Below, in pieces: positions 1 to 5,591 of a stretch of DNA of 64,000 nucleotides (its first letter is position 1; each line of letters opens with the position of its first letter). This stretch comes from an uncultured Acidobacteriota bacterium. Lineage in GTDB: Bacteria > Actinomycetota > Acidimicrobiia > Spongiisociales > ZC4RG35. The translations under genes were made by a program, and so were the position numbers. Below the pieces are notes generated by a model, which was not told the origin of the DNA, ran no database searches, and was given only the letters and a program-made list of their open reading frames with translations. The DNA lies in the NCBI GenBank assembly GCA_963828465.1, contig CAWHEU010000022.1, positions 512,001 to 576,000 of the forward strand, read 5' to 3'.

Positions 1-1
1 A

Positions 2-154
2 GGATTGCTCCTGGCAGGGCTCATCGTCGTTGTGGCCAGGCTGGGAGGCAGCCCCGCGCCGACCGTGTCGGTGTTGTGGCTGGCACTGGTCGCTGCGGTC
101 ATCGCCGGTTTCACCGGCTGGCTGGCCGGTCGACGAAAGCGATCCGGCCCGTAG
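2..154 (+). CDS. 3' end of a membrane protein (partial, runs in from the window edge)
   Basis: Open frame GLLLAGLIVVVARLGG...LWLALVAAVIAGFTGWLAGRRKRSGP*, two hydrophobic stretches, TAG at 152-154. Confidence 0.6.
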   Translation, partial: GLLLAGLIVVVARLGGSPAPTVSVLWLALVAAVIAGFTGWLAGRRKRSGP

Positions 155-157
155 AAT
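152..157 (+). promoter_or_regulatory. Putative -10 box (TAGAAT) of rnpB
   Basis: TAGAAT lies a few nt before the P1 helix of RNase P RNA. Confidence 0.5.
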
Positions 158-160
158 GAT

Positions 161-509
161 GTAGTGAGCCCGCTGGGCGACCGCGGTCGAGAGATCGAGG
201 AAAGTCCGGACTCCACAGGGCGTGGTGCTGGGTAACACCCAGGCGGGGTGACCCGACGGAAAGTGCAGCAGAGAGCAGACCGCCGATGGCCCGAGAGGGC
301 ACAGGCAAGGGTGAAACGGTGAGGTAAGAGCTCACCAGCGTCGCAGGCGACTGCGACGGCTCGGCAAACCCCACCAGGAGCAAGGCCAAGCAGGGACGTC
401 GGCGGCCCGTCGATCAAGTCCTGGGTAGGCCGCATGAGCGCATCGGCAACGGTGCGCCCAGATGGATGGTCGTCCTCGACAGAATCCGGCTTACAGGCGG
501 ACTCATTAC
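161..509 (+). ncRNA. rnpB: RNase P RNA, bacterial type A
   Basis: Universal GAGGAAAGTCCGGACTCC near 197, GGTGAAACGG, GGCAAACCCC..GGAGCAAGGCC, 3' ACAGAATCCGGCTTACAG; GTAGTGAGCCCGCT pairs with GGCGGACTCATTAC (P1). Confidence 0.97.
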
Positions 510-547
510 GCCAAACCCCCTCTAACCAGGGGGTTTGGCCTTTTCTA
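478..547 (+). repeat. Direct repeat copy 1 (attL-like): rnpB 3' end plus terminator
   Basis: 70 bp identical to 3648-3717 except TTA/CCT at 506-508. Confidence 0.95.
510..547 (+). terminator. Intrinsic terminator-like hairpin after rnpB
   Basis: GCCAAACCCCCT-ctaacc-AGGGGGTTTGGC followed by CTTTTCT. Confidence 0.8.
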
Positions 548-720
548 GACGTTCTCCGAAGCCGCCATTGCACGAGGATTCAACAAGAGCGCCGGTCCAA
601 GCTGAGAATCGACTGCTTCGGTGGTCCGCTGGTCATCGTCAGGCCAGAGGTGCGAGTACGTGTCGAGCGTCTCCTGCGCGGTGGCATGGCCCAACCGTCG
701 CTGCACGACGGTCACTGAAC
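545..720 (-). pseudogene. Tyrosine recombinase/integrase C-terminal fragment
   Basis: SVTVVQRRLGHATAQETLDTYSHLWPD matches box II LGH...T..Y.H; no N-terminal or HxxR part upstream; points toward the att repeat. Confidence 0.85.
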
Positions 721-763
721 AAGGGTGGGGCAAGCCCCGGTGACTGTAAGAGGACCTCACTTC

Positions 764-785
764 TGTCACTGCCAGTCCATACGTT
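764..785 (+). promoter_or_regulatory. PafBC/RecA-NDp-like promoter
   Basis: TGTCAC-N10-TA-CGT-T, versus mycobacterial consensus TGTCGG-N10-TA-N3-T; ATG at 792 is 7 nt after the -10. Confidence 0.45.
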
Positions 786-788
786 CCG

Positions 789-899
789 ATGATGACCGAT
801 TGTCCGAACTGCGACCACCCGGTGATCTATCACAACGAGCATGGATGTTTTGCCGCACCGGATTGTGACTGCACCGAACAGTCCGACCGCGCAAATTGA
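789..899 (+). CDS. Small Cys/His-rich putative metal-binding protein (35-36 aa), absent from the ORF track
   Basis: MMTDCPNCDHPVIYHNEHGCFAAPDCDCTEQSDRAN*; CxxCxH...H...C...CxC; leaderless-type promoter just upstream. Confidence 0.55.
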   Translation: MMTDCPNCDHPVIYHNEHGCFAAPDCDCTEQSDRAN

Positions 900-1063
900 G
901 ATGGTGCGGGCGGCGGCCTGACCGACGCGAGCAAGGGAAGGTTCGCGAAAAGTCGATGGACCCCAAACGACGCCATGAGCGATTGCATGGGTGAGGACTC
1001 CCTGGGCGTTCAGGTCCTCGAGGAAGGTCCCGGTCTCACCAACTGGCCGAGGGCGCTTCCGGG

Positions 1064-1110
1064 ACGACGAGACCCCCTGGGTTTGATGTGGGCCAGGGGG
1101 TCTGTCGTTT
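1064..1110 (+). repeat. Hairpin family A, copy 1
   Basis: ACGACGAGACCCCCTGG-loop-CCAGGGGGTCTGTCGTTT; related to 2082-2132. Confidence 0.75.
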
Positions 1111-1238
1111 ACCCGCTTCGCTCCGAACGACTGTACCCGGCCACGCCGGGCCGATTGAGTGGGCAGCAATAAGTGTTTGGTGCGGGGGGCGCCTTGTGCG
1201 TCCGCTACGAACCCGCACAAATCGACAACCCCCCAAAG

Positions 1239-1282
1239 CTCGTCGAATCACGTCAGAAACGGCCAGCCATTGGGGGGTTCTC
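1239..1282 (+). repeat. 44-bp intergenic repeat B, copy 1
   Basis: CTCGTCGAATCACGTCAGAAACGGCCAGCCATTGGGGGGTTCTC; 43/44 identical to 2760-2803. Confidence 0.95.
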
Positions 1283-1308
1283 TCTTGCGTGATCCCTAAT
1301 CTCCGCTG

Positions 1309-1836
1309 GTGGATCACTTCTTTGGAGAAGACCTCCTCTTTGAAGTGCCCGTTTATCGGATCTCCTACGACGAGTTTCACAAGGAGTTAAAAGACACCAT
1401 TCTGGAGACCGCAAGGAACATGGAAGGCTCAGACTCATGGGGTCAGCTTCCTCACGCGGAGATCCGCGAGGAAGCTGAGAGATGGGCGCTGCGAAGGTAT
1501 GGTCGCCCGTACTGGTACAACGAGATGATCGGTGTCATCCGCATATACCAAGACGGCGGATCGATCAAGGGTCAATTCTGGGGTCAGCCTCAGAAGTCAT
1601 TTCGTCGGAACTTCCGCCATTACAACTACCGGGACCGGGGTCGTGTCATCGAAATCCATGAACCGCCAGGTGACCTGACCTCGATGGATGTGTATGAGGA
1701 GCTGAGGGATGACCTTCGTGGCCTCACTCGAAAGGGTGGAACACTCGAGCGCAGACACGTCGATCTGAGCACGTTTGAGCGGCTTGGGCCCTACATCGAT
1801 TGGTTGAAGGTGTTGGGCTGGCGACAGGGCACCTAG
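1309..1836 (+). CDS. Hypothetical soluble protein (175 aa), island cargo
   Basis: Protein-like composition (FEVPVYR, YNEMIGVIRI, GPYIDW); TAATCT -10 box 7 nt before the GTG. Confidence 0.8.
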   Translation: MDHFFGEDLLFEVPVYRISYDEFHKELKDTILETARNMEGSDSWGQLPHAEIREEAERWALRRYGRPYWYNEMIGVIRIYQDGGSIKGQFWGQPQKSFRRNFRHYNYRDRGRVIEIHEPPGDLTSMDVYEELRDDLRGLTRKGGTLERRHVDLSTFERLGPYIDWLKVLGWRQGT

Positions 1837-2081
1837 GTCCGGGCCCGCAGCACCGTAATGAAGAGGCCTACCGGGGGCCCGTGATGTTGGACGATTGGCG
1901 ATGCGTGCAGTGGTTGTCACGATGTCGAGGCCCCAACAAACCAGTTACGAAGACGCGTCGATCCTCACGGGTTAGGCACGACCAAAGTTTCGCGCTTTCG
2001 TTTTCGCGCCGTGGAAATTGGGAAAGTGAGTGCCCGAATAGGAGTGCAGGGCGTCCAAGTCCGGCGAGCTCCGTTCCACAC

Positions 2082-2132
2082 ACGACGAATCCCCCTGGAT
2101 TTGGGGGAGGCTCCAGGGGGATTCTGTCGTTT
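2082..2132 (+). repeat. Hairpin family A, copy 2
   Basis: ACGACGAATCCCCCTGGA-loop-TCCAGGGGGATTCTGTCGTTT. Confidence 0.75.
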
Positions 2133-2199
2133 CCCTCCGTTGAGATTGCACCGAGGAGGACCGAATGGCTGGATATCAGGACGGAGAGCTGGCGGCAAC

Positions 2200-2706
2200 G
2201 TGATCGTCCTCATCCGCCTCTGGGCTTTTCTCCGCTACGTCTTGGCGTTGGCCGGGTTTGTGTGCCTCCTCCTCACGGTGAGCACTGTCACCGGGTGGTT
2301 CACCGTGTCCGCCGAGGGCGCGCAGCTCGAGTGGTATTGGCTGCTCGCCGCAGCGTTCATGCTCGGCTTCCTCAGCACCGTCGGTGACACGCCATTCCCA
2401 GGTGTCTCCCGCGATGGACCTCGCCAGGTGGCTCCGGATCGGCTGGCTCCCAGTCTCGGTCATCCCATTCCGGAAGTTATCCGGGCGATGCTTGTCGCAG
2501 GAGTTTGGGGAGGTCTCACCTACCTGCTTGGCCTCCATCCGATCGTGATTTTTGCTGTAGCGGCCCTCGTCGGGATCGGCTTATCACTCCGCCGACAGAG
2601 GAGAGGGCGGCACGGTGTAGCAGCTAGAGACAGGCTGAGGAGATCCCAAATTCAGGACCGCTCTGAAACAGGGCCGAAGCCAATGATTGGGAGCTGGTGG
2701 CCATGA
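2200..2706 (+). CDS. Hypothetical membrane protein (~4 TM), island cargo
   Basis: Four hydrophobic segments; GTG start overlaps the stop of a 12-aa mini-ORF (GTGA). Confidence 0.65.
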   Translation: MIVLIRLWAFLRYVLALAGFVCLLLTVSTVTGWFTVSAEGAQLEWYWLLAAAFMLGFLSTVGDTPFPGVSRDGPRQVAPDRLAPSLGHPIPEVIRAMLVAGVWGGLTYLLGLHPIVIFAVAALVGIGLSLRRQRRGRHGVAARDRLRRSQIQDRSETGPKPMIGSWWP

Positions 2707-2759
2707 GGCAATCCCCGTCGGGGGGTTCTCTATTCGTGACATGTGGAATCGAAAAAAGA

Positions 2760-2803
2760 CTCGTCGCATCACGTCAGAAACGGCCAGCCATTGGGGGGTT
2801 CTC
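2760..2803 (+). repeat. 44-bp intergenic repeat B, copy 2
   Basis: CTCGTCGCATCACGTCAGAAACGGCCAGCCATTGGGGGGTTCTC. Confidence 0.95.
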
Positions 2804-2842
2804 AGCCTTCGCGGTATCTGTCGCACGGAATAACTTGATCGC

Positions 2843-3335
2843 ATGAACGAATGGCTGACGGCCCTAGCCATCCTCGCTCCCCTGCTTGGAGTCTGGATTG
2901 GCGGCGTGCTTGAACGTCGCTCCCGATCGGAAGAACGAGAGCGATTAGAGCGGTGGGAACTCGTTAAAGACTCTTCGCGCATCCTGGGACGAGTGGGCCT
3001 CCTGCTGCGAACGAGCGACCCAAAGACCTATCACCTCTTCGTCCTGCCAGGGAGTGACTCTGCAACGAAGATCACGGAGAAGAGCGACGAAGCCGGCGCG
3101 CTGGCTCCGATGATGTCGGAGCTCGCGGTCCGATGGCCAGCTGCTGCAGACGATCTTCTCATCCTCGAGAAGGGAACTCGGGATGCTTGCAATCAACCTC
3201 GGCCTGGTGGTTCTCACCTCAGACGATCCTGAGAGCGACCAACTGGACCCGGCGATTCGTTCGCACGGAAAGGCGACAGCGGCTCTGGATCGACTCACGA
3301 AACGTCTGCACAGTCGCGAGCCAGCAATCAACTAA
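2843..3335 (+). CDS. Hypothetical protein with N-terminal TM helix and helical domain; apparent +1 frameshift near 3173
   Basis: MNEWLTALAILAPLLGVWIGG...; removing one G from AAGGGAA continues EKELGMLAINLGLVV...REPAIN* to 3335; TAACTT -10 box 7 nt before ATG. Confidence 0.65.
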
Positions 3336-3474
3336 GGCCAGCATTGCATTCTTTGAGAGTCCGATGCCGGCGAAGTTTTTTCGCCACCCTCTCCGGCCTT
3401 CCCGAACTCGACTCTCCAGGTCCTAGTCTTTCGTTGACCACATCAACCGGCTGCGGCCCCTGTCCGGTGTTCTG

Positions 3475-3500
3475 GAAGCGGCCAGCCCATTGGGGTTCTC
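3475..3500 (+). repeat. Degenerate repeat B, copy 3
   Basis: GAAGCGGCCAGCCCATTGGGGTTCTC. Confidence 0.7.
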
Positions 3501-3647
3501 TGTCCGACGCTCCCATTCAACAGATATTCAACAAGAGGCCGTTGAATCAGGTAGAAACGTGTAGAAGCAGGTAGAACCGTCGGGATGGTGTTTCCCCAGG
3601 TCACCGCCGGAAAACGGCACGTCTTCCCAGGTCAGAAAGGTGCCGGT

Positions 3648-3717
3648 GACAGAATCCGGCTTACAGGCGGACTCACCTCGCCAAACCCCCTCTAACCAGG
3701 GGGTTTGGCCTTTTCTA
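3648..3717 (+). repeat. Direct repeat copy 2 (attR-like) of rnpB 3' end plus terminator
   Basis: GACAGAATCCGGCTTACAGGCGGACTCA-cct-CGCCAAACCCCCTCTAACCAGGGGGTTTGGCCTTTTCTA. Confidence 0.95.
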
Positions 3718-3924
3718 AGCCTTACGCGGTCCCCGTGAACCGGAGTGCGGGCTACTGGTCGGCCTGGTATGTCTGCCGCGTTGGATGTTTTCGGGTGGCA
3801 CTGGGGCGGCATATGTTCCGCACGATTCGGACATAGCGCCAACGTGCATCCATGGCGATTTGGCGTTCGCTCTGATAATCCACTCGCCGCAATGCCGACA
3901 CAGGGCGTCGGGTTTGTTCGACAT
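3715..3924 (-). CDS. Small phage-like protein with CxxC...H...C motif
   Basis: MSNKPDALCRHCGEWI...WMH...SC. Confidence 0.4.
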   Translation of the reverse strand: MSNKPDALCRHCGEWIIRANAKSPWMHVGAMSESCGTYAAPVPPENIQRGRHTRPTSSPHSGSRGPRKA

Positions 3925-4033
3925 CGGTTCCGTTATCGGTATCGAGCGGGAATTCCTGTACCGCGGCGGCCCGGCGTGCGGATCGGGCGACGAATCCCCC
4001 GCTGATATCGACCGTCAAGGGTTCGGTTCGCCT

Positions 4034-4432
4034 CTACGACGAAATCGCGGCGACGGCGCTGACCTCGATCAGCGCACCGGGCACTCCTAGCGCGGCCACC
4101 CGAGCGCCTACAACCGGCGGGGTCGCTCCCGCCAACTCGGCGGCTGCGACCGGATAGGCCGCATCGAGGTCGACGCCGTCGACGAACAGAACCGTCATCA
4201 TCACCAGGTCCTGGACGCTTGCGCCGGACGCGGCCAGCGCGATGTGCAGGTTCTTCATCACCTGTTGGGTCTGGGCGGCGACGTCGTCGCCACCGACGAG
4301 GGCCCCATCGCCGTCGACGGCGTTCTGGCCACCGATGTATACGGTCGTAGCGCCCGGCGGCACGACCGCGACGTGCGTGAAAGCTGGGGATTGCACAAGT
4401 CCTTCTGGCCGAAGCAGTGACGTCTGCGCCAT
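4034..4432 (-). CDS. RidA/YjgF family protein
   Basis: VYIGGQ, AQTQQVMKNL, LGVPGALIEVSAVA; RBS GAGGAG. Confidence 0.9.
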   Translation of the reverse strand: MAQTSLLRPEGLVQSPAFTHVAVVPPGATTVYIGGQNAVDGDGALVGGDDVAAQTQQVMKNLHIALAASGASVQDLVMMTVLFVDGVDLDAAYPVAAAELAGATPPVVGARVAALGVPGALIEVSAVAAISS

Positions 4433-4584
4433 GCGTCCATCTCCTCAGTCCCGACCGTCGGCCGGGTCATTAAGGGCACGATGCTACGCGTCGGCGACCG
4501 GCTCACAGGCACCTGCTCCGGGTCTCACGCAGGACTGTGCACCGGCGTGCCCAAGCTCCTTGCGCGGCTCCCTTCGACCAGGGG

Positions 4585-5367
4585 CTAGTGCGGGAGATCG
4601 AGCTCTACCCACACGGCGGCGTGGTCGCTCAGCTTGCCGTCGAGCCAGTCTTCGCGGTAACCGCACCGCGCTGCCCGCGCCGATTGGGACGCATACACGT
4701 GGTCGTAACGGCGCCGCTTCGGGTGGCGTCCTCTTGGGATGTAACTCGTTGGATTCTCCGCAAACCCATTCAGCCACCGGTAGGCGTCGCTGAGGTCGTG
4801 GTCGCGCAAGCCCCACAGGACCGCACCCTCGGCTTGCTCCCAGCGCTCCGCCAGCTCAGGGTGGCTCGACGCCCAAGTCTCGATCGACCCGTCCTCCTGC
4901 TCTGCCTGTGGGGTGTTGAAGTCGCCGCACAAGATCCGCGGCCCGTGCGCTGGGCGGGCGAGCCGAGCGTAGATGCCTTCGAACGTCTTGAGCTTCTCGA
5001 CCGGCCGGCTCACGCCGGGAGGCAGGTGCGCATTGTGGATCTCTAGGGCGGTGTTAGGAATAGACACCAGCGCTGAAAGCACCTTTTCGGGATAGGGGAT
5101 CTCGCACCCGCCCTCGGGCAGCACTCCGAGCGGCCACCGGCTCGCGATCAGATTGGCATAGCGTCGGCCGGGGCCGATCAGGTGTGTACTGCTCGCGATT
5201 GCAGTTAGACCGGCGTCCGTCAGATGCTTTCGCCAGCCGGGCTCAGACCCATGGGTGACCTCTTGAAGGCAGACGAGAAGCGGCTGCTCGCCGAGAAGCG
5301 CTTAGGCCTGACGCCCGAGGGTGGCGTCTACCCGACCATTGACGTTCCAAGAGAAGAGCTTGAGCAC
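4585..5367 (-). pseudogene. Endonuclease/exonuclease/phosphatase (EEP) family protein with in-frame TAA at 5302-5304
   Basis: LFSWNVNG...QA*ALLGEQPLLVCLQEV...LIASRWP...NAHLP...CGDFN...YDHVY...SDHAAV, all in one frame. Confidence 0.85.
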
Positions 5368-5591
5368 GCTACCGCCTATGCAGTCGCCCCCATCCTCGCC
5401 GATCTGACGCTATGCATTTCCATGCTGCCGACAATCGGATTTCTGTCCGAGAATGCACGACGCGGGCCGGACCGCAGCGGATTCCTGAAATCCAGCGGGT
5501 TCCAGGCGCCCCGGCATAGCCTGAATGTCGTCTGAAACCTTCCCGGCCGCTCGTGGGTCGAACCAGCGGAACCAAGAGGAGGATTGCTCGT

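Follow-up and report, generated by a model that had tools for sequence, protein, structure and literature searches.

A decayed integrative island at the RNase P RNA gene of an uncultured actinobacterium and the rnpB-associated integrases related to its remnant

As a textbook rule, tyrosine integrases insert mobile DNA into the 3′ ends of transfer RNA (tRNA) and transfer-messenger RNA (tmRNA) genes, and a 2002 account by Williams is said to describe genomic islands and prophages integrated at such ends. In actinomycetes, pSAM2, SLP1 and similar integrative conjugative or mobilisable elements target tRNA genes. Here we analyzed a 64,000-nt stretch of the genome of an uncultured bacterium of the Acidimicrobiia (contig CAWHEU010000022.1, positions 512,001 to 576,000; hereafter, the window), in which an initial annotation made from the sequence alone had proposed an integrative island (478-3717) with the gene for RNase P RNA, rnpB, as its attachment site. 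This locus resembles tRNA and tmRNA islands in that what is left of an integrase gene lies beside the intact gene copy, the 3′ end of that copy would be supplied by the element, the native fragment is found at the far end as a direct repeat, and relatives have empty sites. Unlike in those islands, the target is the gene of the RNase P ribozyme, and the duplication takes in the P1 3′ strand together with the second half of the P4 3′ strand, and here the terminator as well. The proposed mechanism is the known tRNA/tmRNA 3′-end strategy applied to a new target.

A stable RNA gene other than a tRNA gene also serves as attB for the Enterococcus phage phiEf11, which integrates into ffs, the 4.5S RNA gene, reported there as a novel site, as confirmed on lysogens by polymerase chain reaction (PCR) (PMC12540744, 2025). 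The introduction of that article, where rnpB does not appear, lists tRNA/tmRNA and csRNA among non-coding RNAs as the known targets (PMC12540744, 2025). The phage phiEf11 and the rnpB elements presented below share a short identical core near the integrase gene (27 nt in phiEf11, 24-35 nt in the rnpB elements); they differ in RNA gene and phylum, and phiEf11 is PCR-confirmed whereas the rnpB elements are known from sequence alone. Full-text literature searching, with paywalled papers, supplements and the TIGER/Islander tables outside its scope, returned no report of rnpB as an integration or attachment site; the passages on rnpB or RNase P that it did return concern phylogeny, annotation or expression, not integration.

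The duplicated rnpB 3′ end, the integrase remnant and the empty sites

The rnpB gene occupies positions 165-509 on the plus strand and is a full-length class A RNase P RNA according to an Rfam scan (RF00010; 296.9 bits against a gathering score of 100, model positions 1-367, E = 4e-96). It is single-copy across its own genome (3.07 Mb in 29 contigs), and no tRNA or tmRNA scored above the Rfam threshold anywhere in the window. A repeat search showed that positions 478-547 recur as a direct repeat at 3648-3717, with 67 of 70 nucleotides identical (96%) and the copies starting 3170 bp apart, as the initial annotation had stated; a 70-nt match at this identity within 8 kb excludes chance. The three differences are clustered (506-508 versus 3676-3678), preceded by 28 identical nt (478-505) and followed by 39. 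By the Rfam end point, the duplicated portion of rnpB amounts to 32 nt (478-509), and the remainder of the repeat is a hairpin of 12 pairs with a T tract, placed by a terminator scan at 510-539 and 3680-3709. Both copies are on the plus strand. The proximal copy, attL (478-547), joins the rnpB 3′ end to the hairpin terminator and its T tract (510-547), while the distal copy, attR (3648-3717), would be the displaced native rnpB 3′ end and terminator.

The proximal copy is abutted by a minus-strand open reading frame (ORF; 545-769, 74 amino acids) that ends ..CSVTVVQRRLGHATAQETLDTYSHLWPDDD.. and whose stop codon (545-547) is formed by the last 3 nt of the repeat. The listed ORF continues to 769 and its homology ends at 722, delimiting an integrase pseudogene at 548-722 that comprises the last ~58 codons (..CSVTVVQRRLGH..TYSH..). 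This segment matches integrase PHROGs (phrog_1, E = 2.3e-5) and, in an alignment with P0001-P0011, corresponds to the C-terminal ~58 residues of intact 372-375 amino acid integrases, with 72-73% identity, which bears out the proposed tyrosine-integrase remnant. Of the catalytic set R..K..HxxR..H/W..Y it retains just two residues, the last His (LGH) and the Tyr (TYSH); all sequence upstream of CSVTVVQ is missing. In soil-metagenome run X1, a loose contig end that diverges after position 722 reads HYASLLISSG on the minus strand (hand translation), and intact integrases have HYASLLISSG just before CSVTVVQ, which places the deletion breakpoint of the window integrase at 722/723. We identified no helper integrase of the rnpB-type family in the same genome, where PF00589 gives only two matches, on other contigs and probably of Xer type. 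With its integrase cut at 722/723 and no other family member in the genome, the island is immobile by its own enzyme; the ORF list, Pfam and PHROG also revealed no excisionase and no replication gene within it. The window copy is a decayed remnant, not an active element.

To this we added a presence/absence comparison, in which window positions 1-5200 were searched in 40 relatives. Two members of the same genus lack the island: in G017, rnpB and its terminator are followed by 58 nt and then a RidA-like gene, and in G012 by 468 nt of other DNA and then the RidA-like gene. Another member, G015, has a different island of 1.49 kb at the same place, with a 294 amino acid ORF as cargo; it shares the first 19 nt after the terminator with the window island, and the arm at its distal repeat is 80% similar to window positions 3516-3715. 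A further member, G001, carries a second rnpB 3′ copy about 1 kb downstream. A partial rnpB match in G038, a genome flagged as unpublished (window 166-367), has no bearing on any of these claims. In addition, contigs of four soil-metagenome runs (X1-X4) were placed on window positions 1-4600, with uncovered parts not counted as evidence. Contig 8 of X1 (467 nt, depth 5.64) joins 456-477 directly to 3648-4092 with two other letters and represents an empty site; it was assembled at k=31, so reads spanning the 28-nt shared segment would have been needed to build it. The island is real and polymorphic within the genus, and the proposal of an integrative island is upheld by the two empty sites and by this contig.

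The same contig bears on the origin of the two repeat copies, as it shows no difference from the attR version within 3648-3717. The attR version (CACCTCGCC) is one change away from the sequence of relatives (CACCACGCC), and the attL version (CATTACGCC) is two changes away from it. The last ~32 nt of rnpB come from the island side of the junction. The initial annotation had suggested a tRNA-like strategy at rnpB, and this agrees with what was found: the proximal copy completes the single rnpB of the genome, and the distal copy is the 3′ end present in the empty-site contig. The locus has the features of islands of this type, namely direct repeats of the 3′ end of an RNA gene as its bounds, the end of an integrase gene beside the intact target, and an empty site in relatives; judging by the full-length, single-copy Rfam match, the target appears to stay complete after insertion. 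It departs from the tRNA/tmRNA type in the identity of the target, rnpB.

Very probably, an integrative element inserted into the rnpB 3′ end through site-specific recombination by a tyrosine integrase and has since decayed to what remains at 478-3717. The attP site of such an element would have carried a terminator of its own and a copy of the final ~30 nt of rnpB, which cover the P1 3′ strand and the second half of the P4 3′ strand. Recombination with the chromosomal rnpB 3′ end (attB) would have produced a complete rnpB whose end and terminator derive from the element (attL), and would have displaced the native 3′ end 3.17 kb downstream (attR). Because the distal copy keeps the empty-site version, the crossover would be expected within 478-505. 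A later deletion, with its breakpoint at 722/723, would have left only the last ~58 integrase codons, and loss of the island could now occur only by homologous recombination between the repeats.

The rnpB-associated integrase family and its elements

Intact integrases of 372-375 amino acids (P0001-P0009) were found with a longer remnant (L024) as the query. Ten of ten intact relatives have R195, K234, H301, R304, H327 and Y337 (alignment A3), which we take to be the catalytic set of a tyrosine recombinase. Intact relatives also match the PF00589 profile (P0001, 85.8 bits; L187, 79.2 bits; L185, 84.9 bits; cut-off 27.1), which the window ORF does not. To delimit the family, one genome for each of 185,579 species was scanned with an alignment of intact integrases, and 469 relatives were picked with two motifs; the loci analyzed are the best 80 of the 469 (46-100% identical to P0001). 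In 71 of these 80 loci, rnpB or an rnpB 3′ fragment lies beside the integrase gene (66 found by blastn, four by the P4 motif [L056, L071, L072 and L105], and one, L076, by eye). Rfam applied to 16 loci without a blastn rnpB match found no rnpB, and five of these carry 3′ fragments only. Judging by record titles, the hosts include Acidimicrobiia, Nocardioides, Mycobacterium, Mycolicibacterium, Geodermatophilus, Blastococcus, Modestobacter, Janibacter, Actinotalea, Pseudonocardiales and Propionibacteriaceae. The idea of an rnpB-specific integrase group holds in that 71 of 80 loci adjoin rnpB or a 3′ fragment of it and that all 60 rnpB-adjacent rows of the tree below fall in one branch; its restriction to "these Actinobacteria" was too narrow, given that the group extends over much of Actinomycetota and to phages.

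Two layouts recur. In the convergent one (42 loci), 52-77 nt separate the integrase stop codon from the ACAG of P4; in the tandem one (7 loci), rnpB is followed by about 207 nt and then by the integrase start, and the spacer is rich in GAGGAC repeats. A same-direction subgroup (L056, L058, L060, L083, L101, L105, L115 and L076) likewise has the integrase about 207 nt past P4, behind a spacer filled with GAGGAC/TCCTCA, and these repeats are probably protein-binding sites of the attachment region.

Within the order of the window genome (401-genome sample), six of the seven hits outside the own genome at ≥60% identity and E ≤ 3e-13 adjoin rnpB or a 3′ fragment. The seventh (L029) has no rnpB beside it, and more distant matches adjoin tRNA-Arg, tRNA-Ser, tRNA-Lys or tRNA-Sec. 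Seven rnpB-adjacent remnants are known from this comparison, one of which (L027, G269) comes from a genome flagged as unpublished. Many rnpB-adjacent copies are pseudogenes (L024/L054, L025, L026, L028, L030 and L195): L195 (2579-2794) breaks off near residue 300, and L054 is interrupted by an in-frame stop and has lost 24 residues, the first catalytic Arg among them. In the subgroup of the window, decay that follows insertion seems to be the rule.

For a quick IQ-TREE phylogeny, 29 of 108 locus ORFs that were interrupted or of unsuitable length (too long or too short) were excluded, and 91 rows were kept. A single branch of 80 rows (SH-like approximate likelihood ratio test [SH-aLRT] 95) comprises every one of the 60 rnpB-adjacent rows together with 8 that have no rnpB and 12 without context, among them the window remnant; all nine tRNA-adjacent rows fall outside it, in a separate branch of their own (97). 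A tree of the remnant's homologues had been suggested as a check on whether the rnpB-adjacent ones group together, as they do here. The window remnant sits in a set of 10 rows (SH-aLRT 95) with P0001, P0002 and P0004-P0009, its nearest rows being P0008, P0007 and P0005. In a 118-row FastTree phylogeny that includes viral rows, the ancestor of 67 rnpB rows subtends 95 rows and none of 11 tRNA rows (support 99). Relatives adjacent to tRNA-Arg and tRNA-Sec lie outside the rnpB branch in both trees, and one row outside the clade (L032) is from a genome flagged as unpublished, G027. That locus (520-1713) encodes an intact 397 amino acid integrase whose gene overlaps a convergent glnA-like ORF (1701-3131, minus strand) by 13 nt, and may be an island aimed at the 3′ end of a gene for glutamine synthetase.

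Several genomes contain complete elements, both ends included. Exact rnpB 3′ repeats lie 15.7 kb away in Mycobacterium aurum (29 nt), 13.7 kb away in the Nocardioidaceae SSC3 chromosome (24 nt), and at 8.1 and 9.6 kb in Nocardioides sp. MH1 (31 and 29 nt); in Actinotalea ferrariae, an rnpB 3′ repeat lies 16.3 kb away. These repeats begin at (A/T/C)CCGGC(T/C)TACAGG, inside the P4 3′ strand (TCCGGCTTACAGG.., CCCGGCCTACAGG..). They were found by blastn-short on 60 kb of flank; a strict P4 motif applied to five complete genomes returned nothing beyond the gene, since the repeats begin at a point further 3′. The crossover had been placed in or just before the P4 3′ strand; a position in the strand, in its second half, or after it is more likely, and one before it is less likely, since the repeats of complete elements start inside the strand. 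As cargo, the complete elements carry HTH_17 (Xis-like), AAA_25, methyltransferase, SAD/SRA-like and HATPase_c_3 genes, and in MH1 a phage capsid protein.

On metagenome contig L187, an rnpB gene 96% identical to that of the window lies beside an intact 398 amino acid integrase, an HTH_17 gene and a 917 amino acid TrwC relaxase. This combination of integrase, Xis-like HTH_17 protein and TrwC relaxase at rnpB recalls elements of the pSAM2/SLP1 type, as do the AAA_25 and HTH_17 genes of the 8-16 kb elements. These elements differ from the pSAM2/SLP1 type in their target gene, and the parts examined revealed no FtsK-like transfer gene; the window island retains none of these genes.

The arrangement recurs in viral DNA. 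A 94-kb viral contig with L154 has no rnpB and only an rnpB 3′ fragment, 54 nt past the integrase stop codon and flanked by an SLT-domain gene and by Xis-like, CI-like and Gam-like genes; by its position, this fragment is a candidate attP. Among GenBank phages, none has an integrase that exceeds 40% identity with the M. aurum protein. Of phage proteins, those that match this rnpB-adjacent integrase best, at 39% identity, are the integrases of two isolated temperate Arthrobacter phages, Kukla (PQ362669.1) and TripleJ (NC_049470.1). In Kukla, a 35-nt segment that begins 10 nt past the integrase stop codon coincides without a mismatch with the rnpB 3′ end in G424; in a 301-genome sample of that order, 4 genomes have an exact match to its first 26 nt and 6 others a match with one or two mismatches. 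This segment is a candidate attP. The Kukla integrase falls inside the rnpB group in the FastTree phylogeny; it is only 34% identical to P0001, its core has the same orientation as the integrase gene and not a convergent one, and the record annotation names no attachment site.

A degenerate 20-nt rnpB 3′-end pattern matched 196 of the 401 genomes of the order, 10 of them with two copies, and a reversed-pattern control gave 6 hits in total; the two-copy count is a lower bound, as the second copy of G015 escapes the pattern and many genomes are fragmented. The two-copy genomes include G027 and G216, and the genomes with a single-copy rnpB and a different terminator include G018 (L012), all three flagged as unpublished. 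No integrase of this family lies between or beside the extra rnpB 3′ copies of G073, G011, G220 and G259.

It is possible, if not quite probable, that rnpB is the dedicated attachment site of a phylum-wide actinobacterial integrase clade, borne by temperate phages, relaxase-bearing mobilisable elements and small islands and constituting a class undescribed in print. Each insertion would replace the P4/P1 3′ strand and the terminator, so that repeated visits would rewrite the end of the gene and could leave scars, such as a C·A mismatch in P1 or an element-type terminator at a single-copy rnpB. A large and coherent integrase clade at the RNase P RNA gene would amount to a third class of stable-RNA target. 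Island finders limited to tRNA and tmRNA genes, or filing such sites as intergenic, could gain a whole set of actinobacterial elements. As a conserved, single-copy and essential gene, rnpB could also offer a landing site for integrating vectors in Actinomycetota, with the isolated phage Kukla as a starting point, and the family raises the question of how much foreign 3′ sequence RNase P RNA tolerates. The window copy itself is an ordinary dead remnant whose value is as a pointer to the family.

Alternative explanations

Several results weigh against integration of the window island at rnpB, or against the specificity of the family for this gene. For the remnant ORF (545-769), Pfam returned no match up to E = 0.1, and about 58 residues are the basis of its assignment. 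The terminator is the same in both repeat copies, so it does not distinguish element from native sequence. No rnpB was found near nine of the 80 relatives (L059, L065, L069, L087, L092, L106, L121, L122 and L126), and the eight rows without rnpB fall inside the rnpB branch of the IQ-TREE phylogeny; either rnpB specificity is not absolute or the context of the nine loci is incomplete. The trees draw their ingroup from best hits and have a small outgroup, an assumed root and some long branches, which limits the word clade to the sampled rows. Finally, among the X1-X4 contigs listed, none bridges either island junction (those of X2 end at 505 and resume at 509, and none listed crosses 3571-3648), so the integrated arrangement rests on the assembly itself, and neither an attP circle nor an excision product of the window island was seen among them. 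The listed metagenome contigs yield the empty site (X1 contig 8) and not attL, attR or an attP circle. Two loose ends, at 465 in X2 and at 933 in X1, were set aside, as they look like copies from other organisms or paralogous copies.

The missing bridges would fit an assembly artefact, in which a small separate DNA with an rnpB 3′ fragment and an island-free chromosome would have been threaded together through the shared 28-nt and 39-nt segments. The presence of the empty-site form in X1, the 29-contig state of the assembly and its 4.81% contamination are also in keeping with such an artefact. Against it, a 3.2-kb DNA whose integrase is truncated and which lacks a replication gene is unlikely to be maintained in free form, and integrated islands of the same geometry occur in G015, in G001 and in complete genomes. 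Contig 9 of X2 ends exactly at 505, as a de Bruijn branch would where rnpB runs on into attL and also into the empty site. We consider an artefact highly unlikely.

A local segmental duplication of the rnpB 3′ end, without site-specific recombination and with the integrase fragment as a chance neighbor, is more improbable still. Short extra rnpB 3′ copies with no family integrase between them do exist in G011 (738 bp apart), G028 (152 bp) and G073 (3.7 kb), yet such copies are also the expected residue of decayed tandem islands. Moreover, the repeat contains the remnant's stop codon, an arrangement shared by intact elements, whose stop codon is 52-77 nt from P4 in 42 loci; the family sits at a single-copy gene in 71 of 80 cases; and the DNA between the repeats matches the own genome elsewhere only in small pieces, within another island remnant. 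That the integrase is a resident host gene kept beside rnpB by synteny, as its adjacency in many actinobacterial families might suggest, can be dismissed as hardly credible, since its presence varies within one genus, direct repeats delimit its elements, whose cargo varies, viral contigs and an isolated phage also harbor members, and many copies are pseudogenes. Entry of an integrative element at the rnpB 3′ end is the explanation that we retain for 478-3717.

Island content and neighboring features

Much of the island has a G+C content of 54-60%, versus about 65-67% in rnpB and the downstream flank. Its cargo, encoded on the plus strand, gave no Pfam match and no usable lead from PHROG or the Atlas. 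A 36 amino acid Cys-rich ORF (789-899; CPNC..CDC) has homologues in other island remnants and no PHROG match, and DNA matches to window 764-901 were found in contig C18 of the same genome, in G003 and in G021. The ORF at 1309-1836 (175 amino acids) has no Pfam or PHROG match, and an Atlas search gave only weak leads (<0.9). The ORF at 2200-2706, whose start codon is uncertain within 2011-2706, likewise has no Pfam or PHROG match; it has several hydrophobic stretches and, judged by eye, probably encodes a membrane protein, and DNA homologous to this region is present in G008, G024, G020 and G006. Two overlapping ORFs in different frames (2843-3232 and 3183-3335, together 2843-3335), without a Pfam or PHROG family match, could possibly be one frameshifted cargo gene.

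A 44-nt internal repeat on the plus strand (1239-1282 and 2760-2803, 98% in the repeat search) precedes the ORFs that start at 1309 and 2843 by about 27 and 40 nt, respectively. A partial third copy lies at 3475-3495; the genome has no full copies other than these two, and homologous pieces are multi-copy in G003, G006, G019 and G004. The repeat may serve as a promoter or operator common to the island family. The island arm beside attR (3503-3647, plus strand) contains repeated TTCAACA and CAGGTAGAA motifs (repeats D6, 555-589 / 3503-3537, and D13), and the repeats in 3503-3647 and 555-589 are candidate arm sites of the integrase.

At the 5′ side of rnpB, a consensus scan found a promoter-like site (130-157, plus strand; TCGACG, 16 nt, TAGAAT), the only one in 1-4200; shuffled sequence gave a mean of 1.0, which makes this weak evidence. 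The P1 helix of the window rnpB (166-173 with 496-503) has one C·A mismatch (5′ GAGCCCGC, 3′ GCGGACTC), which is common to G012, G023 and G003, is compensated to a T-A pair in G006 and is a G-C pair in other members of the genus; an element that brought in its own 3′ strand may have left this mismatch as a scar. In several genera, the integrase is found together with the terminator core AAACCCCCTCTAACCAGGGGGTTT (rnpB terminators of L004-L014, L024-L030 and L053). Some island-free members of the genus with a single-copy rnpB have this core or a near variant, and G016, G018, G002, G004 and G001 have an unrelated hairpin. Where the core occurs at an island-free rnpB, it may be a footprint of past integrations.

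Immediately outside attR, positions 3718-4018 (minus strand) look like a second, older mobile remnant. This segment, containing a 69 amino acid ORF (3715-3924) with a weak match to phrog_15923, is missing from the empty sites of G017 and G012, and copies are present in contig C18 of the same genome, G006, G008 and G020. The C18 copy (L015, 9234-10145) lies beside tRNA-Val(gac), together with homologues of window 764-901 and 1180-1280. The region downstream of rnpB may be a tandem graveyard of islands. It is followed by a gene of the RidA/L-PSP family (4034-4432, minus strand; PF01042, 62.8 bits), a conserved chromosomal flank that is syntenic with rnpB in G012 and G017. Beyond this gene, window positions 4502-5481, with an ORF of the Exo_endo_phos family (4585-5124, minus strand), are missing between the same flanks in G012 and G017 and constitute another insertion or deletion near the island.

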